This document shows positions 15,513-41,128 of a stretch of DNA of 50,143 nucleotides, in pieces (within the stretch, counting starts at the first letter, position 1; each line of letters starts with the position of its first letter). The DNA lies in the sequence record OV696612; one strand, written 5' to 3'. A model generated the notes under the pieces. That model saw only the letters and a program-made list of their open reading frames with translations. It was not told the origin of the DNA and ran no database searches. The position numbers and the translations under genes were made by a program. The stretch comes from Escherichia phage Perceval.

Positions 15513-18500
15513 ATGGGTAAAGGCAGCAGTAAGGGGCATACCCCGCGCGAAGCGAAGGACAACCTGAAATCATCCCAGATGCTGAGCGTGATAGACGCCA
15601 TCAGTGAAGGGCCGATTGAAGGTCCGGTGGACGGATTAAAAAGTGTGCTGCTGAACAGTACGCCAGTGCTGGACAGTGAGGGGAATACCAATATCTCCGG
15701 TGTCACGGTGGTTTTCCGGGCAGGTGAGCAGGAGCAGACACCGCCGGAGGGATTTGAATCCTCCGGCTCCGAGACGGTGCTGGGTACGGAAGTGAAGTAC
15801 GACACGCCGATTACCCGGACCATCACGTCTGCAAACATCGACCGTCTGCGCTTTACCTTCGGTGTGCAGGCACTGGTGGAAACCACCTCAAAGGGGGACC
15901 GGAATCCGTCGGAAGTCCGCCTGCTGGTTCAGATACAGCGTAACGGTGGCTGGGTGACGGAAAAAGACATCACCATTAAAGGCAAAACCACCTCACAGTA
16001 TCTGGCCTCGGTGGTGGTGGGTAACCTGCCGCCGCGCCCGTTCAATATCCGGATGCGCAGGATGACGCCGGACAGCACCACAGACCAGCTGCAGAACAAA
16101 ACGCTCTGGTCGTCATACACCGAAATCATCGATGTGAAACAGTGCTACCCGAACACGGCACTGGTCGGCGTACAGGTGGATTCGGAGCAGTTCGGCAGCC
16201 AGCAGGTGAGCCGTAATTATCATCTGCGCGGGCGTATTCTGCAGGTGCCGTCGAACTATAACCCGCAGACGCGGCAATACAGCGGTATCTGGGACGGAAC
16301 GTTTAAGCCAGCATACAGCAATAACATGGCCTGGTGTCTGTGGGATATGCTGACCCATCCACGCTACGGCATGGGGAAACGTCTTGGTGCGGCGGATGTG
16401 GACAAATGGGCGCTGTATGTCATCGGCCAGTACTGCGACCAGTCAGTGCCGGACGGCTTTGGCGGCACGGAGCCGCGCATCACCTGTAATGCGTACCTGA
16501 CCACACAGCGCAAGGCGTGGGATGTGCTCAGTGATTTCTGCTCGGCGATGCGCTGTATGCCGGTATGGAACGGGCAGACGCTGACGTTCGTGCAGGACCG
16601 ACCGTCGGATAAGGTGTGGACCTATAACCGCAGTAATGTGGTGATGCCGGATGATGGCGCGCCGTTCCGCTACAGTTTCAGCGCCCTGAAAGACCGCCAT
16701 AATGCCGTTGAGGTGAACTGGATTGACCCGAACAACGGCTGGGAGACGGCGACAGAGCTTGTGGAGGATACGCAGGCCATTGCCCGTTACGGTCGTAACG
16801 TCACGAAGATGGATGCTTTTGGCTGTACCAGCCGGGGGCAGGCACACCGCGCCGGGCTGTGGCTGATTAAAACAGAACTGCTGGAAACGCAGACCGTGGA
16901 CTTCTGCGTGGGCGCAGAAGGGCTTCGCCATGTACCGGGCGATGTCATTGAAATCTGTGATGATGACTATGCCGGTATCAGCATCGGCGGGCGCGTGCTG
17001 GCGGTAAACAGCCAGACCCGGACGCTGACGCTCGACCGTGAAATCACGCTGCCATCCTCCGGTACCACGCTGATAAGCCTGGTTGACGGAAGTGGCAATC
17101 CGATCAGCGTGGAGGTTCAGTCCGTCACCGACGGCGTGAAGGTGAAAGTGAGCCGTGTTCCTGACGGTGTTGCTGAATACAGCGTGTGGGGGCTGAAGCT
17201 GCCGACGCTGCGCCAGCGCCTGTTCCGCTGCGTGAGTATCCGTGAGAACGACGACGGCACGTATGCCATCACCGCCGTGCAGCATGTACCGGAAAAAGAG
17301 GCCATCGTGGATAACGGGGCGTACTTTGACGGCGACCAGAGCGGCACGGTGAATGGTGTCACGCCGCCAGCGGTGCAGCACCTGACCGCCGAAGTCACCG
17401 CAGACAGCGGGGAATATCAGGTGCTGGCGCGCTGGGACACGCCGAAGGTGGTGAAGGGCGTGAGCTTCCTGCTCCGTCTGACCGTAACAGCGGATGACGG
17501 CAGTGAGCGGCTGGTCAGCACGGCCCGGACGACGGAAACCACATACCGCTTCAGGCAACTGGCGCTGGGGAACTACAGGCTGACAGTCCGGGCGGTAAAT
17601 GCGTGGGGGCAGCAGGGCGATCCGGCGTCGGTATCGTTCCGGATTGCCGCACCGGCAGCACCGTCGAGGATTGAGCTGACGCCGGGCTATTTTCAGATAA
17701 CCGCCACGCCGCATCTTGCCGTTTATGACCCGACGGTACAGTTTGAGTTCTGGTTCTCGGAAAAGCGGATTACCGATATCAGGCAGGTTGAAACCACAGC
17801 CCGCTATCTTGGTACGGCGCTGTACTGGATAGCCGCCAGTATCAATATCAAACCGGGCCATGATTATTACTTTTATATCCGCAGTGTGAACACCGTTGGC
17901 AAATCGGCATTCGTGGAGGCCGTCGGTCGGGCGAGCGATGATGCGGAAGGTTACCTGGATTTTTTCAAAGGCAAGATAACCGAATCCCATCTCGGCAAGG
18001 AGCTGCTGGAAAAAGTCGAGCTGACGGAGGATAACGCCAGCAGACTGGAGGAGTTTTCGAAAGAGTGGAAGGACGCCAACGATAAGTGGAATGCCATGTG
18101 GGGCGTCAAAATTGAGCAGACCAAAGACGGCAAACATTATGTCGCGGGTATTGGCCTCAGCATGGAGGACACGGAGGAAGGCAAACTGAGTCAGTTTCTG
18201 GTTGCCGCTAACCGTATCGCATTTATTGACCCGGCAAACGGGAATGAAACGCCGATGTTTGTGGCGCAGGGCAATCAGATATTCATGAACGACGTGTTCC
18301 TGAAGCGCCTGACGGCCCCCACCATTACCAGTGGTGGCAGTCCTCCGGTATTTTCCCTGACATCAGACGGAAAGCTGACCGCTAAAAATGCGGATATCAG
18401 TGGCAGTGTGAATGCGAACGCCGGGACGCTCAACAATGTCACGGTAAATGAAAACTGTACGATTAAGGGCATGCTGGAGGCGACTCAGGTCAGAGGTGAC

Positions 18501-18926
18501 TTCGTTAAAGCTGTATCCAAATCATTTCCGAAACAGGCTGGTACGTGGGGTAACACGGAAACACCAAACGGGACGGTTACAGTCACCATCAGCGATGATC
18601 ATAACTTTGACCGTCAAATCATTATTCCGCCCATTATCTTTAACGGAATAGCGTATAGCGATCCGGGAAGTGGTAATAACCCGGGAGGTACAAGATACAC
18701 GGGTTATGGTTTTGAAGTTCGCAAAAACGGTGTATTAATCGCATCCAGAGAAACTAAAGGGGCCATTCCCGGTAGCTACAGTGCGGTTATTGATATGCCG
18801 AGTGGCAGGGGAAGCGTCACTCTGGAGTTTAAGGTTTTCCATAAAGGCAATCAGTGGGCAGGTAATATCACCGACTGTACGGTGATTGTGACCAAAAAAG
18901 CCGCTTCCGGCATCAGTATTCGTTGA
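15513..18926 (+). CDS. J: central tail fibre / host specificity protein J
   Basis: 1137 aa; N-terminal about 980 aa match lambda gpJ; fibronectin-III-like repeats; C-terminal about 150 aa appear divergent from lambda J as recalled. Confidence 0.93.
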
Positions 18927-18946
18927 AATTGTTATAACCCATATAA

Positions 18947-18972
18947 GGGCACCAGAAATGGTGCCTTTTTTA
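18947..18972 (+). terminator. rho-independent terminator after J
   Basis: GGGCACC-AGAAAT-GGTGCC followed by TTTTTT. Confidence 0.7.
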
Positions 18973-18995
18973 TTGCAGAAAAGCGAGAGGTAATT

Positions 18996-19595
18996 ATGCG
19001 TAAACTTTATGCCGCCATTTTGTCCGCAGCCATTTGTCTGGCCGTATCCGGTGCGCCTGCATGGGCATCTGAACATCAGTCCACGCTGAGCGCGGGGTAT
19101 CTTCATGCCTCGACGAACGTTCCCGGCAGCGATGATCTTAACGGGATTAACGTGAAATACCGTTATGAGTTTACGGACACACTGGGGCTGGTGACGTCAT
19201 TCAGCTATGCAGGAGACAAGAATCGCCAGCTTACCCGTTACAGCGATACCCGCTGGCATGAAGATTCCGTGCGTAACCGCTGGTTCAGCGTGATGGTGGG
19301 GCCGTCTGTGCGCGTGAATGAATGGTTCAGCGCGTATGCGATGGCGGGTATGGCTTACAGCCGTGTGTCGACTTTCTCCGGGGATTATCTCCGCGTAACT
19401 GACAACAAGGGGAAAACGCACGACGTGCTGACCGGAAGTGATGACGGTCGCCACAGCAACACGTCTCTGGCGTGGGGAGCTGGCGTGCAGTTTAACCCGA
19501 CCGAATCCGTGGCCATTGATATTGCTTATGAAGGCTCCGGCAGTGGCGACTGGCGCACTGACGGTTTCATCGTGGGTGTCGGTTATAAGTTCTGA
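18996..19595 (+). CDS. lom: outer membrane protein Lom (Ail/OmpX family)
   Basis: 199 aa with signal peptide [24 protein letters not shown] and beta-barrel sequence ending GYKF; matches lambda Lom. Confidence 0.9.
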
Positions 19596-19621
19596 TTAGC
19601 CAGGTAACACAGTGTTATGAC

Positions 19622-19649
19622 AGCCCGCCGGTTCAGGCGGGCTTTTTTG
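19622..19649 (+). terminator. rho-independent terminator after lom
   Basis: AGCCCGCC-GGTTCA-GGCGGGCT followed by TTTTTT. Confidence 0.75.
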
Positions 19650-19659
19650 TGGGGTGAAT

Positions 19660-21720
19660 ATGGCAGTAAAGATTTCAGGTGTACTGAAAGACGGCACAGG
19701 AAAACCGGTACAGAACTGCACAATCCAGCTGAAAGCAAAACGTAACAGCACCACAGTTGTGGTGAACACGGTGGCCTCAGAAAATCCGGATGAAGCCGGA
19801 CGTTACAGCATGGATGTTGAGTATGGCCAGTACAGCGTCGCCCTGCTGGTTGAAGGTTTTCCGCCTTCACATGCCGGGACCATCACCGTGTATGAGGATT
19901 CTAAGCCGGGGACATTGAATGATTTTCTGGGCGCTGCAACAGAAGATGATGTTTGTCCGGAGGCACTGTATCGTTTTGAAAAGATGGTGGAAGAGGCGGC
20001 ACGCAACGCTGAAGCCGCCTCTCAGAGCGCAGCGGCAGCAAAGAAATCAGAAACAGCAGCGGCATCGTCCAGGAACGCGGCGAAAACATCAGAGACGAAT
20101 GCAGGTAACAGCGCGAAAGCGGCAGCTTCTTCAAAAACAGCCGCACAAAACGCAGCAACAGCGGCAGAACGTTCAGAGACAAATGCCCGTGCGTCAGAAG
20201 AAGCCTCCGCAGACAGTGAAGAGGCTTCCCGCCGTAATGCAGAGTCAGCCGCTGAAAATGCCGGAGTCGCCACCACAAAAGCGCGGGAGGCCGCAGCAGA
20301 CGCAACAAAGGCCGGGCAGAAAAAGGATGAGGCTCTGTCGGCAGCGACACGAGCTGAAAAGGCGGCAGACCGCGCAGAAGCCGCAGCGGAAGTGACTGCA
20401 GAGCCCTGTGCGAATATAGTGCCGCCGCTGCCTGATGTGTGGATACCGTTTAACGATTCACTGGATATGATTGCGGGTTTTTCTCCGGGCTATAAAAAAA
20501 TAGCTATTGGTGACGATGTGGTTCAGGTCGCCAGTGATAAACAGGTTAATTTCAGTCGCGCATCAACGGCAACATATATCAACAAATCTGGCGAACTGAA
20601 AACGGCGGAAATTAATGAGCCGCGATTTGAGTGTGATGGCCTGCTTATTGAGGGACAAAGAACGAACTACATGCTCAATTCGGAAAGTCCAGCCAGCTGG
20701 GGGAAGTCATCAAACATGGATGTGCCCGAAACCGGGACGGATAGTTTTGGTTTTACTTATGGAAAGTTTGTCTGCAACGATTCTCTGGTTGGGCAAACTT
20801 CGGCTATTAATATGGCATCAATTGCTGCAACAAAGTCAGTTGATGTCTCAGGCGATAACAAGTACGTGACAACCTCATGCCGTTTTAAAACAGAACGACA
20901 GGTAAGGTTACGTATACGGTTTGATAAGTATGATGGTAGTGCAACAACTTTTCTTGGCGATGCGTACATTGATACGCAAACGCTTGAAATTAGTATGACA
21001 GGTGGTGCTGCCGGCAGAATTACGGCACGAGTCAGGAAGGATAAGACCACGGGCTGGATTTTTGCAGAGGCAACGATTCAGGCAATTGATGGTGAGTTAA
21101 AAATAGGCTCTCAGATACAGTATTCTCCTGGGCAGGGTGGGGCAACAGTATCTGGTGACTATATTTATCTTGCCACCCCACAAGTAGAGAATGGGCCGTG
21201 TGTATCATCATTTATTATTTCAGGAGGCAGCGCAACGACAAGAGCCAGTGATTTGGTTAGTATCCCCACCAGAAATAATCTTTATAAGTTACCATTTACT
21301 TTTTTACTTGAGATTCATAAAAACTGGGATATTGCACCAAACGCCGCACCCCGCGTGTGGGATATAGCAGCAGCCAATACCGGGCAATCAGCAATTGCAG
21401 CAATCAACAGAGGTAGTGGTAAGTTATATATGAGTCTGTCAAACCCTTCAGGCTCGTATGTTAATAGCGCAGCGACAGATGTATTTGCAGAGAAAACCAC
21501 ATTTGGATGTATTGCAAAAGCTGATGGTCACTTTCATGTGGTGACAAATGGTAAAGCGGTTAATGAAGTTTATTGTGAATATAATGGCGTGACCGCTGAT
21601 AAAAATATCCGATTTGGAGGGCAGACGAATACTGGAGAACGACATCTGTTTGGCCATATTCGCAATTTCCGCATATGGCATAAAGAATTAAATGACAGGC
21701 AATTAAAAGAGGTCGTATGA
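19660..21720 (+). CDS. stf: side tail fibre protein (lambda Stf-like N-terminus, Ala-rich repeat stalk, non-lambda C-terminal domain)
   Basis: ATG at 19660; MAVKISGVLKDGTGKPVQNCTIQLKA... matches lambda Stf N-terminus; residues about 115-245 are an Ala/Ser/Glu-rich repeat; C-terminal about 430 aa are not recognisable as lambda Stf. Confidence 0.85.
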   Translation: MAVKISGVLKDGTGKPVQNCTIQLKAKRNSTTVVVNTVASENPDEAGRYSMDVEYGQYSVALLVEGFPPSHAGTITVYEDSKPGTLNDFLGAATEDDVCPEALYRFEKMVEEAARNAEAASQSAAAAKKSETAAASSRNAAKTSETNAGNSAKAAASSKTAAQNAATAAERSETNARASEEASADSEEASRRNAESAAENAGVATTKAREAAADATKAGQKKDEALSAATRAEKAADRAEAAAEVTAEPCANIVPPLPDVWIPFNDSLDMIAGFSPGYKKIAIGDDVVQVASDKQVNFSRASTATYINKSGELKTAEINEPRFECDGLLIEGQRTNYMLNSESPASWGKSSNMDVPETGTDSFGFTYGKFVCNDSLVGQTSAINMASIAATKSVDVSGDNKYVTTSCRFKTERQVRLRIRFDKYDGSATTFLGDAYIDTQTLEISMTGGAAGRITARVRKDKTTGWIFAEATIQAIDGELKIGSQIQYSPGQGGATVSGDYIYLATPQVENGPCVSSFIISGGSATTRASDLVSIPTRNNLYKLPFTFLLEIHKNWDIAPNAAPRVWDIAAANTGQSAIAAINRGSGKLYMSLSNPSGSYVNSAATDVFAEKTTFGCIAKADGHFHVVTNGKAVNEVYCEYNGVTADKNIRFGGQTNTGERHLFGHIRNFRIWHKELNDRQLKEVV

Positions 21721-21995
21721 AAGATTTAACTTTGAAGTTTCATGACAAACTGCAGTTTAAGGCCTTCCTGTCATCTCTTGGCTGGGCGGAAGATGAAGAC
21801 CTCCAGAATAAACTGTTAGTTGATGAAATTGGTTTCACCTACACAGAAACAGGGGTAACAGAAGAGGGAGAACCTGTCTGTATCCGGAATGATGGTTATT
21901 TTGTCAACATTCGCATTCTTGATGACTTGTTTGATGTTTCTGTATTCTCTGATTATGTCGTGGAGCTGGAAACACCGCTTCGGGAATGGAGCTGA
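21717..21995 (+). CDS. hypothetical protein downstream of stf (92 aa, acidic)
   Basis: ORF translationally coupled to the stf stop (ATGA overlap); no similarity to Tfa-type tail fibre assembly proteins. Confidence 0.5.
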   Translation: MKDLTLKFHDKLQFKAFLSSLGWAEDEDLQNKLLVDEIGFTYTETGVTEEGEPVCIRNDGYFVNIRILDDLFDVSVFSDYVVELETPLREWS

Positions 21996-22007: not shown

Positions 22008-22301
22008 ATGGATATAAGCCCCTTACTTCATGCACTTTGTGCTGTGGCTGCGCAGATACTGGTTGGTCTTTTTACCGGAAACTGGGCTTACGGAGCGATA
22101 GCCGGTTGTACGTTCTTCATTGCGCGTGAACATACCCAGGCAGAATATCGCTGGATTGAAATGTTCGGGCATGGCAAGCGAATGAATATGCCGTGGTGGG
22201 GCGGTTTTGATCCGCGAGCTTGGGATGTGGCAAGCCTGATGGATTTTGCTGTGCCGGTGGTGGCGTGTCTGCTGGTCTGGCTGTTGGTTAATCGTGGGTG
22301 A
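22008..22301 (+). CDS. hypothetical small membrane protein (97 aa, two predicted TM helices)
   Basis: Strong RBS AAGGAGG 6 nt upstream of the ATG; hydrophobic segments LHALCAVAAQILVGLFTGNWAYGAIAG and FAVPVVACLLVWLLV. Confidence 0.55.
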   Translation: MDISPLLHALCAVAAQILVGLFTGNWAYGAIAGCTFFIAREHTQAEYRWIEMFGHGKRMNMPWWGGFDPRAWDVASLMDFAVPVVACLLVWLLVNRG

Positions 22302-22392: not shown

Positions 22393-23250
22393 CTAATTGG
22401 GTGATAACAGATCCTGTGTATGGGAGTTTCCCTTTTTGCGTGCGTTGATGCTGGTAACGGCAAACGTCATGATGAACAAAACCGCGAATAAGACGACAAT
22501 CGTCGGAGCTGGTGCGCTGTCGATAAAAAAGGACAACCAGACACCAGTCATTGACACTATTACCGATATGCCAGTCGCCAGTAGGAGCGCAATATGAAAG
22601 CGTTGTGTCAGGAGTACCGCAATGGCGCCAGGCGCAATGAGCAGAGAAATGGAGAGAATGATACCTACCGCTTTCAGCGTCGCCACAATGGTCAGAGAGA
22701 CCATGCACAGCAGCCCATAATGCAGCCATCTCGTATGCAAACCGCTTACCTGCGCCTGTTGATAATCAAAGCTGAACAGCAAAAAATCCCGCCATTTTAC
22801 GCTAATAACAAGTGTAACCAGCCCGGCAATAATCATCGTCTGGATTATATCGCCGATGGTTATCCCGAGCATGTCGCCGAAAAGAATATGGTCAAGATGT
22901 ACGTCTGGTTTGACTGCAATATACAAGATCAGACCTGCGGCAAACATGCCAGAAAAAACAATCCCCATCACTGTATCTTGCTTGATTCGGCTGTTGTCTT
23001 TCAGGTATCCCGTCGCCACCGCGCAGAATACTCCGGCGACGAATGCCCCTGTAGCCAAAGGTAACCCCAGAATCCAGGCAAGCACGATGCCAGGAAAAAC
23101 CGCATGACTCATCGCGTCACCCATCAGTGCCCAACCTTTCAGGACCAGAAAGACCGACAGCAGCGCACAGGGTATGGAAACTACCAGTGAAATCAGCAGT
23201 GCGTGACTCATAAAGGTGAACTGCAGTGGCTCCAGTAATAATGCCATCAT
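22393..23250 (-). CDS. sitD: Mn/Fe ABC transporter permease SitD
   Basis: 285 aa polytopic membrane protein of the ABC-3 permease family; last gene of a four-gene operon with overlapping stop/start junctions. Confidence 0.85.
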   Translation of the reverse strand: MMALLLEPLQFTFMSHALLISLVVSIPCALLSVFLVLKGWALMGDAMSHAVFPGIVLAWILGLPLATGAFVAGVFCAVATGYLKDNSRIKQDTVMGIVFSGMFAAGLILYIAVKPDVHLDHILFGDMLGITIGDIIQTMIIAGLVTLVISVKWRDFLLFSFDYQQAQVSGLHTRWLHYGLLCMVSLTIVATLKAVGIILSISLLIAPGAIAVLLTQRFHIALLLATGISVIVSMTGVWLSFFIDSAPAPTIVVLFAVLFIMTFAVTSINARKKGNSHTQDLLSPN

Positions 23251-24104
23251 GAGCGATCCTCCAGCGCCTTATGCGCACGCCGACGATTTGCCAAAAGCCC
23301 ATGGGTGGGCGCAAAGACAAATGCTAAAAGAAACAGCAGTGTCTGCGCCACCACGATGATTCCACCTGTCGCGCCGTCCAGAAAGTAACTGACCCACGCG
23401 CCGAGGAAACTGGTTACACTGCCAATAGTTACAGCAATCATGAGCAGGCGGGGAAAACGATCGGTTAACAACCATGCTGTTGCACCGGGAGTCACCACCA
23501 GACAGATCACCAGAAAGGCACCAACCGTTTGCAGCGCCGCAACGGTCGAAACCGACAGCAGGGTGAAGAAGAGGAGTTTTAATCTGCCCGGATGCAATCC
23601 AATAGCACGGGCGTGATTCTCGTCGAAAAAGGTCACCATAAGATCTTTCCATTTGAAAAAAAGCACGATGATCGAGAGAATGCCAATGATAGTGAGTTGC
23701 AGGATATCCGCCGGATCGATTGCCAGAATATTGCCCAGGACGATGGTCTGAATGTTCACAGATGTCGGGTTCAATGACACCATAAACAGCCCCAGGCCAA
23801 AAAAGGACGAGAAGATCAGACCGATGATGGCATCTTCTTTTAAGCGGGTGCGTTGGTTAAGAAACAGCATGCTGCCCGCAGCCAGTCCGCCGGAAAAGAA
23901 GGCTCCCAGAGAAAACGGAAGCCCCAGCATATATGCCCCCGCAACACCCGGGACAATAGAGTGCGACAACGCATCGCCAATCAGCGACCAGCCTTTTAGC
24001 ATCAGATAGCATGACAGGAAAGCGCAGAGACCGCCGACCATCGCCGAGACCCACATCGCATTGAGCATATATTCATAGCTGAAGGGTTCCAGTAGCACGT
24101 TCAT
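23247..24104 (-). CDS. sitC: Mn/Fe ABC transporter permease SitC
   Basis: 285 aa ABC-3 family permease; start overlaps sitB stop. Confidence 0.85.
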
Positions 24105-24928
24105 CTTTCTTCCCTCTGCACCGCTGACGGTCGATGAGCCACAAAAGGGCGTTCATCGTCAGTAATAATGCTTTCTTCCGAGCCGTTAAGTGTGACATGG
24201 CGCAGTACGCCGCTAAAAGCCAGCTCTAGGTTCTCGGCTGTAAAAGTGGTGTCTGTCGGCCCGCTTGCTAGGACGGTGCCTTTGACCATGACCGTATAAT
24301 CGCAAAATGTCGTGACGGATCCGAGATTGTGTGTTGAGACAAGCATCGTTTTGCCTTCCGCGCGTAACTCCCTCAACAGGCTGATGATTTTGGCTTCGGT
24401 TTTCACATCAACGCCAGTAAAAGGTTCATCCAGCAGGATCACATCACCCTGCTGTGCAATCGCTCTCGCCAGAAAGACGCGTTTCTTTTGTCCACCGGAA
24501 AGCTCGCCGATTTGTCGATGGCGAAAATTCACCATATCGACACGTTCCAGCGCATCGGTGACAATTTGACGATCCCTCTTTTTGGCGATACGCAACATAC
24601 CCATATGCCCATAGCGGCCCATCATCACCACATCTTCCACCAGTACAGGAAATGACCAGTCAACATCTTCTGACTGAGGGACGTAGGCAACCAGGTTTTT
24701 CTGTAACGCCTGTCGCGTGGGAATACCCAGAACAGATATCTTTCCGCTGGTCAGACGCACAAATCCCATAATCGCTTTAAACAACGTCGATTTTCCGGAA
24801 CCGTTTACCCCAACCAGAGCGGCAATAGATCCACTTGGTACTGTGAAGGATGCATCGCGCAGTGCTGTGTGCCCGTTACGCCAGGTGACAGTAACATCAT
24901 TAACGACAATGCCTGCAGATTGCATCAT
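24101..24928 (-). CDS. sitB: Mn/Fe ABC transporter ATP-binding protein SitB
   Basis: 275 aa; Walker [13 protein letters not shown] signature LSGGQKKR, Walker [12 protein letters not shown]. Confidence 0.9.
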
Positions 24929-39250: not shown

Positions 39251-40777
39251 ATGAAAAAAGCCATAGCATATATGCGATTTTCATCACCAGGTCAGATGTC
39301 TGGTGATTCATTAAACCGCCAGAGAAGGCTTATTACTGAATGGCTAAAGGTAAATAGTGATTATTACCTTGATACCGTAACGTATGAAGATTTGGGGTTA
39401 AGCGCATTCAATGGAAAGCATGCACAATCAGGAGCTTTTTCGGAATTTTTAGATGCTATAGAACATGGTTACATATTGCCAGGGACTACATTGTTAGTTG
39501 AAAGTCTGGACAGACTTTCAAGAGAAAAAGTCGGTGAAGCGATTGAGCGTCTGAAATTGATTTTGAATCACGGTATTGATGTTATAACTCTTTGCGATAA
39601 TACAGTCTATAATATAGACTCATTGAATGAGCCATATTCATTAATAAAAGCCATACTTATAGCACAAAGGGCAAATGAAGAAAGCGAGATAAAGTCAAGT
39701 CGGGTTAAATTATCATGGAAGAAAAAACGGCAGGATGCACTGGAATCAGGCACGATTATGACGGCGTCTTGTCCGAGATGGCTCTCATTGGATGACAAAA
39801 GAACAGCTTTTATTCCAGACCCCGACAGGGTGAAAACGATTGAGCTAATTTTTAAACTCAGGATGGAAAGGCGATCATTGAATGCAATAGCTAAGTATTT
39901 AAATGATCATGCTGTAAAAAATTTTTCAGGAAAAGAAAGTGCATGGGGGCCTTCTGTAATTGAAAAATTATTAGCGAATAAAGCTCTGATAGGTATATGC
40001 GTACCTTCATATCGTGCAAGAGGGAAAGGGATAAGTGAAATCGCTGGCTATTATCCCAGAGTCATATCAGATGATTTGTTTTACGCTGTACAGGAAATTC
40101 GGTTGGCACCTTTTGGTATTAGCAATAGTAGCAAGAATCCTATGCTAATAAATCTACTTCGAACAGTTATGAAGTGTGAGGCTTGTGGTAATACCATGAT
40201 TGTTCATGCGGTATCTGGACGTTTGCATGGCTATTATGTTTGTCCGATGAGAAGATTACATCGATGTGACAGGCCATCAATAAAAAGAGATTTGGTTGAT
40301 TATAATATCATTAATGAATTGCTTTTTAATTGTAGCAAAATTCAACCAGTTGAAAACAAGAAAGATGCTAATGAAACTTTAGAGTTAAAAATTATTGAGC
40401 TTCAGATGAAAATTAATAATTTAATCGTTGCATTGTCTGTCGCGCCTGAAGTTACCGCTATAGCAGAGAAAATAAGACTATTAGATAAGGAATTACGAAG
40501 GGCTTCGGTATCATTAAAAACTTTGAAGAGTAAAGGGGTGAGTTCACTTGGTGATTTTCATGCTATTGATTTAACCAGTAAAAATGGGCGAGAGCTATGT
40601 CGTACACTTGCCTATAAAATATTCGAAAAAATTATAATTAATACAGATAATAAAACCTGTGATATCTATTTTATGAATGGCATTGTTTTTAAACACTATC
40701 CTTTAATGAAAGTAATATCCGCCCAGCAGGCGATAAGTACTCTTAAATATATGGTTGATGGTGAGGTTTATTTTTGA
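39251..40777 (+). CDS. ybcK: large serine recombinase (YbcK-like)
   Basis: 508 aa; N-terminal resolvase-type catalytic domain (AIAYMRFSSPGQ...SLNRQ, nucleophile Ser in RFSS), C-terminal Cys cluster (CEACGN...C...C) and coiled coil; AT-rich. Confidence 0.8.
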   Translation: MKKAIAYMRFSSPGQMSGDSLNRQRRLITEWLKVNSDYYLDTVTYEDLGLSAFNGKHAQSGAFSEFLDAIEHGYILPGTTLLVESLDRLSREKVGEAIERLKLILNHGIDVITLCDNTVYNIDSLNEPYSLIKAILIAQRANEESEIKSSRVKLSWKKKRQDALESGTIMTASCPRWLSLDDKRTAFIPDPDRVKTIELIFKLRMERRSLNAIAKYLNDHAVKNFSGKESAWGPSVIEKLLANKALIGICVPSYRARGKGISEIAGYYPRVISDDLFYAVQEIRLAPFGISNSSKNPMLINLLRTVMKCEACGNTMIVHAVSGRLHGYYVCPMRRLHRCDRPSIKRDLVDYNIINELLFNCSKIQPVENKKDANETLELKIIELQMKINNLIVALSVAPEVTAIAEKIRLLDKELRRASVSLKTLKSKGVSSLGDFHAIDLTSKNGRELCRTLAYKIFEKIIINTDNKTCDIYFMNGIVFKHYPLMKVISAQQAISTLKYMVDGEVYF

Positions 40778-41101: not shown

Positions 41102-41128
41102 AGCCCGCATAAGTGCGGGCTGCTTTTT
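41102..41128 (+). terminator. rho-independent terminator (plus strand), overlapping the hydrolase gene stop
   Basis: AGCCCGCA-TAAG-TGCGGGCT followed by GCTTTTT. Confidence 0.6.

Follow-up and report, generated by a model that had tools for sequence, protein, structure and literature searches.

The window analysed here is the whole 50,143-nucleotide sequence of Escherichia phage Perceval (OV696612). Its gene J encodes the central tail fibre, or tip attachment protein, and this protein is lambda-like for most of its length and ends in a receptor-binding domain of the type found in phage 434. Positions 1–12 of the window read GGGCGGCGACCT, the cos end of phage lambda, and the right-hand end (50135–50143) reads ...CAGGTTACG, like the right end of lambda; the window is therefore a complete linear lambda-like genome of 50,143 bp. 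Within the phage collection, the left arm is nearest to phage ev207 (in the first 25 kb, 96.9% identity at 96% coverage) and the right arm to phage 4A7 (99.1% identity at 75% coverage), with no single record matching the window from end to end. Gene J is located in the tail operon after I and before lom and stf, and this order of open reading frames (ORFs) agrees with the annotated lambda and 434 records. The product contains the complete domain series of the lambda gpJ family, comprised of FNIII-A_GpJ, Phage-tail_3, Ig_J, Ig_J_second, Phage_Tail_Tip, and Ig_GpJ_C, all above the curated Pfam cutoffs. The last of these, the immunoglobulin (Ig)-like C-terminal receptor-binding domain, covers residues 1001–1136 (E = 9.4e-26), corresponding to positions 18513–18920. 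The small overlapping ORFs in the region 18275–19106 in other frames and strands were dismissed as spurious in view of the conservation of the J frame and the purifying selection acting on it. The features discussed below are collected in Table 1.

Table 1. Positions of gene J, the exchanged cassette, and other features in the window
Feature	Position	Strand	Basis
Gene J, central tail fibre / tip attachment protein	15513..18926	+	ORF, 3414 nt, 1137 aa; Pfam
Lambda-like part of J (hub domains, FNIII/Ig domains, helical shaft, beta-prism fibre)	15513..18430	+	96–100% aa and 91–100% nt identity to lambda
434/h434-type receptor-binding C-terminus, J residues 967–1137	18411..18926	+	94.2% identity to 434 over 171 aa
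Mosaic block replacing the J receptor-binding domain, J-lom spacer, and lom relative to lambda	18430..19530 (~1.1 kb, approximate)	+	nt identity profile, GC
Terminator-like hairpin and T-run between J and lom	18945..18978	+	Consensus scan; the 434 record annotates a terminator at the same place
lom (Ail/Lom outer-membrane beta-barrel), 434 allele	18996..19595	+	Pfam Ail_Lom 1.4e-119
Side tail fibre (Stf), 688 aa, possible second adsorption determinant	19654..21720	+	Pfam phage_tail_N 6.3e-68
ipeX-like 3' region of the porin transcript	44515..44679 (approximate)	-	DNA identity to K-12
General porin, nmpC/lc type	44680..45762	-	Pfam Porin_1 1.9e-151

To define where J departs from its lambda counterpart, the two proteins were aligned globally (lambda reference NC_001416) and identity was calculated per 50-residue bin. 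The proteins are 89% identical as a whole. Every bin up to residue 950 shows 96–100% identity, beyond which the values fall to 74% for residues 951–1000 and then, with 11 gap positions, to 42%, 30%, and 35%. In the C-terminal 150 residues 55 positions are identical (36.7%), with insertions and deletions, and over residues 967–1137 (171 aa) the identity is 40.9%. The high identity to lambda J residues ~985–1132, including the four receptor loops, that characterizes the lambda (LamB-binding) type of domain is absent. A preliminary description of this DNA had claimed that most of J matches lambda J and that the last ~150 residues differ. This claim stands, as the identity found lies far below the value of more than 90% over the C-terminal 150 residues that would speak against it, and every peptide string quoted there is found in the J translation. 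The divergence also lies at the end of the gene that had been flagged, but the start given for it (18400, residue 963) sits ~10–20 codons upstream of the actual breakpoint.

At the DNA level, the junction with lambda is located at about 18430–18460. Nucleotide identity to lambda is 0.93–1.00 before the junction, 0.77 in 18400–18499, and 0.40–0.65 to about 19530, after which it returns to 0.95, and the GC content drops from ~0.60 in mid-J to 0.45–0.46 across 18450–19050. An abrupt change of this kind, from near-identity to ~36% and accompanied by indels, marks a mosaic junction and not chance drift. The block of low identity runs past the J stop codon and through both the spacer and lom, whose product is 45% identical to lambda Lom. 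Because the block spans the spacer and lom, Lom is diverged, and the GC content is shifted, the real unit is a cassette of ~1.1 kb consisting of the J receptor-binding domain and lom. It can be noted that lom has thereby been swapped jointly with the receptor-binding end of J. The segment downstream of J that includes lom (18927–19700) aligns to 434 without gaps at 99.2% nucleotide identity (~99% for lom), so that the spacer and the linked lom allele are those of the 434 type.

The J protein itself gives the same picture. The J proteins of the window and 434 are both 1137 residues long and align without gaps at 98.3% identity, with 19 substitutions. In the C-terminal segment, 161 of 171 residues are identical (94.2%), also without gaps, and the identity over the last 150 residues is 95.3%. 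For the whole gene, DNA matches of at least 96% are found in many phages, including 434 and the laboratory hybrid lambda h434 imm21. For the C-terminal 527 nt, the identity is 100% in 27 records of Stx1a- and Stx2c-converting prophages, 99.4% in phages cdtI, phi458, and Ayreon, and 91.8% in 434 and lambda h434. An alignment of 32 J C-termini resolves into discrete types, with the window placed in the 434 type, within which identity is at least 90%. The other types, including that of lambda, are 43–53% identical to the window tip. All tip types share a framework (FDRQI, IDMPxGxG, and KK..GISI) and differ in the sequence and length of four variable segments; in these segments the window tip shows the indel and loop pattern of 434, with identical loop lengths. 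The classical OmpC-dependent host-range allele of 434 and lambda h434 (OL657226, OM418627) thus resembles the window in J length, in the linked lom, and in the position of the J-lom terminator. It differs in that 10 of the 19 substitutions fall within residues 970–1115 and in that the tip DNA is only 91.8% identical, so the window tip is a distinct, older sub-allele. Synonymous divergence (dS) between the two tips is 0.33, compared with 0.12 for the rest of J, and nonsynonymous divergence (dN) is 0.03, giving a dN/dS of 0.09. Positive selection on the tip relative to 434 was rejected on this value. Given a dS of 0.33 but a dN of 0.03, the alleles are old and have been held to an almost unchanged protein, as would be expected had the receptor stayed the same.

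An AlphaFold2 model of J residues 967–1137 (predicted local distance difference test score, pLDDT, 83) was compared with the PDB. The only entries matching it at high significance are the solved gpJ tips 9wca/9wcb and 8xck/8xcj, with template modelling (TM) scores of 0.73–0.77, the best being A8 gpJ (E = 3.8e-15, TM 0.77). No structure of a 434-type tip has been solved. With the lambda J tip (8xck, closed; 8xcj, bound to LamB) the window tip shares Ig_GpJ_C, the Ig-like fold, and the framework motifs, whereas three of its four variable segments contain indels relative to lambda, and the reported receptor of its nearest relative is OmpC and not LamB. A8, a gpJ C-terminus of natural prophage origin, redirects lambda to OmpC in chimeras (PMC11338833). 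Its tip (9wca, closed; 9wcb, bound to OmpC of E. coli EDL933) has a fold like that of the window tip (TM 0.74–0.77), but at 45–46% identity and with other loop lengths the window tip falls outside the A8 cluster. OmpC is thus bound by several types of gpJ tip, a property that may have arisen independently or go back to a common origin.

In the established nomenclature protein Ib is OmpC. The primary source, Hantke 1978, as it is listed in reference 133 of PMC7553319, names 'phages T2 (protein Ia) and 434 (protein Ib)'. Use of OmpC by 434 is likewise reported in PMC11101478, as is the binding of OmpC by lambda equipped with the 434 fibre, and a further report has the central fibre of 434 targeting OmpC (PMC12502783). 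The lambda h434 hybrid has the same J as 434. By homology to 434, the J protein of the window very probably binds OmpC and not LamB. The suggestion in the preliminary description that the receptor may be an outer-membrane protein other than LamB is supported to this extent, the tip being of the 434 type and 434 using OmpC. Two phages with tips close to that of the window have K-12 hosts on record: the tip of phi458 (MC1061) differs from it only at W1115R, and that of PhiR26_1 (MG1655) at five residues. A published receptor test for a phage carrying the exact window sub-allele was not found in the literature searched, which also yielded no paper on the PhiR, mEp460, phi458, and Ayreon tips, and lambdoid J tips are not treated in Mathieu 2020 (PMC6969025) or in a receptor-prediction preprint (10.64898/2026.04.02.716166).

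A mechanism can be proposed on this basis. The last ~155 residues of an otherwise lambda-type J are the 434 (h434) allele of the Ig-like receptor-binding domain, and a single recombination module of ~1.1 kb brought in both this domain and the adjacent lom allele. Exchange of such modules is the normal route by which host-range cassettes pass among lambdoid phages. The variable loops of the trimeric tip would be inserted into the extracellular face of a trimeric porin and, the loops being of the 434 type, the partner would be OmpC instead of LamB. Spreading of the tip would then twist the beta-prism fibre and open the tail tip. Triggering of this kind is predicted by analogy with lambda J on LamB, for which structures are available (PMC11101478).

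Some observations weigh against assigning to the window exactly the receptor of 434. The two tips differ at 10 of 171 residues (A970S, V978I, E980Q, S1004A, Q1008K, A1009V, N1019D, S1049D, R1099G, and W1115R, with the window residue given first), and several of these (Q1008K, A1009V, N1019D, S1049D, R1099G, and W1115R) lie in segments that vary between receptor types. In other gpJ variants, the set of OmpC variants accepted is altered by small differences (PMC11338833), so the window may depart from 434 in its receptor range. A further influence on host range may come from the side tail fibre.

These differences invite the reading that the tip is 434-like with a shifted specificity, through W1115, R1099, S1049, and Q1008/A1009, and either accepts a restricted set of OmpC variants or uses a different general porin, OmpF for example. 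Within-type polymorphism was assessed in thirteen 434-type sequences (eleven representatives of 90%-identity clusters, the window, and 434), in which 29 of 171 positions are polymorphic. Polymorphism is enriched where receptor types differ (24 of 99 columns, compared with 5 of 72 elsewhere; Fisher p = 0.003), which favours a shift. Clustering of the ten window-434 substitutions was also considered and, taken by itself, is not convincing; the enrichment applies only to the broader polymorphism within the type. Variation at position 1115, where tryptophan, arginine, or glycine is found depending on the allele, is consistent with a shift as well. Precedents exist in the natural gpJ variants A8 and 1A2, which both use OmpC and accept different OmpC variants (PMC11338833), and in phage 21, which gains OmpC as a receptor through one J mutation and OmpF through additional ones (PMC11336670). 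Against this, the substitutions are mostly conservative with an overall dN/dS of 0.09, the loop lengths are as in 434, and phi458, for which W1115R is the sole difference, has a K-12 host in its record. We consider a shifted specificity of this kind improbable.

Position 1115 (nucleotides 18855–18857) is a marker in its own right, being tryptophan in the window, arginine in 434 and phi458, and glycine in many other 434-type alleles. O157 Stx1a/Stx2c prophages have tip DNA identical to that of the window, with W1115.

That the tip retains LamB in spite of its diverged sequence has a parallel in lambdoid phage 21, whose native receptor is LamB (PMC11336670), and divergence of sequence alone does not prove a change of receptor. 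However, the founder of the type to which the tip belongs, 434, reportedly uses OmpC, the h434 allele confers OmpC use on lambda (PMC11101478), and each of the four variable segments has a sequence unlike that of lambda, with a changed length in three, which leaves retention of LamB very unlikely. An irrelevant or decaying C-terminus, with host range set by the side tail fibre alone, is scarcely credible: a 688-residue Stf with its own distal domain is encoded just downstream and the Stf proteins of Ur-lambda and Gifsy-1 aid adsorption (PMC11338833, PMC12312913), but the J frame is intact and under strong purifying selection (dN/dS 0.09), the exact protein is widely conserved (see below), and binding of J to its receptor is the irreversible triggering step in lambda (PMC11101478).

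The OmpC-type tip proposed for the window is not rare. The exact 1137-residue J protein is already public as 'host specificity protein J' (UniRef A0A4Q4I3D8), is found on at least 1000 contigs, and belongs to a 90%-identity cluster of 4993 members. Of 5426 complete E. coli genomes, 2090 have DNA of the 434-type C-terminus at a coverage of at least 80%. The corresponding segment of lambda occurs in 96, and its five best matches are laboratory strains. With 2090 genomes compared with 96, a ratio of ~20, the 434-type tip is thus the common one and that of lambda the rarity. The tip belongs to the classical h434 host-range cassette; it was known before, occurs very frequently among E. coli prophages, and represents no new kind of biology. 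The word 'divergent' used for it in the preliminary description is true relative to lambda but lambda-centred, since the tip type is ~20 times commoner in complete E. coli genomes than that of lambda, and the counts correct this bias. For annotation and host-range prediction, it is the C-terminal ~155 residues of J and not the gene name that tell which porin a lambdoid phage needs, and the window is best annotated as an OmpC-type phage rather than a LamB-type one. Because identical tips are carried by O157 Stx1a/Stx2c prophages, the assignment is relevant to the transfer of Stx and other cargo; it also bears on the engineering of lambda particles for use in the gut.

The window also encodes a general porin, from which the preliminary description had taken a hint about the receptor. 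The porin is 91% identical at the protein level to NmpC of the K-12 cryptic prophage DLP12 and 63% identical to K-12 OmpC, with gaps in two segments taken as putative surface loops, and its gene is 86% identical at the nucleotide level to lc of phage PA-2 (J02580). The gene lies between the Q-like gene and the lysis genes, an arrangement also seen in DLP12 and 4A7. Its 3' end and flank are ~91% identical to the 3' end and flank of K-12 nmpC, which we take to be the location of ipeX. The Rfam models gave no match anywhere in the window, so the assignment of the ipeX-like region derives from DNA identity to K-12 only. With an NmpC/Lc-type porin between Q and the lysis genes and a conserved 3' region, the locus is a porin-small RNA module of the same kind as those of PA-2 (lc) and DLP12 (nmpC-ipeX), and in the window it is placed on the strand opposite the lysis genes and the Q-like gene. 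IpeX reportedly reduces OmpC and OmpF (PMC8065619; see also PMC12197685) and is listed among the small RNAs that target ompC mRNA (PMC3333887, PMC5745476).

As a pointer to the receptor, the porin gene fared poorly. A 434-type tip was present in only 11 of the 25 distinct phages of the collection that carry the porin, a small sample not corrected for relatedness, and the baseline for this tip is 75 of 252 J-bearing records (redundant). Use of OmpC by PA-2 itself was given no weight as evidence. With the remaining 14 of the 25 lacking this tip, the porin was rejected as a predictor of tip type. The module stands apart from J, and its pairing with the 434-type tip is loose. Three exceptions were sampled: the tips of 4A7 and ev017 are 83% identical to the OmpC-binding A8 type, and judged by this similarity they probably bind OmpC, and that of 2G7b is of a third type. 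The LamB-type tip of lambda was seen in none of the three. Porin-carrying lambdoid phages have at least three J tip types, namely the 434 type (n = 11), the A8-like type, and that of 2G7b.

An OmpC-dependent phage whose lysogen swaps OmpC for a phage porin would make a sensible pairing, and the idea is a known one. Since OmpC-using gpJ variants accept different OmpC variants, differences in OmpC-variant range between sub-alleles are possible. We put forward, as a tentative and rather unlikely proposal, that the W1115/R1099/S1049/Q1008-A1009 sub-allele may recognise other OmpC variants than 434 does, and that it may be matched with the nmpC/lc porin and ipeX module as a receptor swap excluding superinfection. 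If so, lysogens would exchange the phage's own receptor for a porin not bound by the tip. Sub-allele specificity of this kind would be a modest refinement and not a new kind of system.

The remaining features of the window lie outside the J-lom cassette. The side tail fibre has a weak C-terminal match to Laminin_G_3 (concanavalin-like) below the curated cutoff and an NCBIfam GTA spike-fibre domain, and its architecture is unlike that of lambda stf/tfa. Two small ORFs downstream of it (21717–21995 and 22008–22301, both on the plus strand) gave no family match and may encode fibre chaperones. The b region (22393–25842, minus strand) carries as cargo a four-gene, sitABCD-like Mn/Fe ABC transporter made up of a substrate-binding protein, an ATPase, and two permeases, and the relatives 4A7 and ev017 have SitA and SitD annotated at the corresponding position. 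The nin region contains a YbcK-like large serine recombinase (39251–40777, plus strand) and an alpha/beta-hydrolase (esterase; 41127–42170, minus strand), both of which are common to 4A7.

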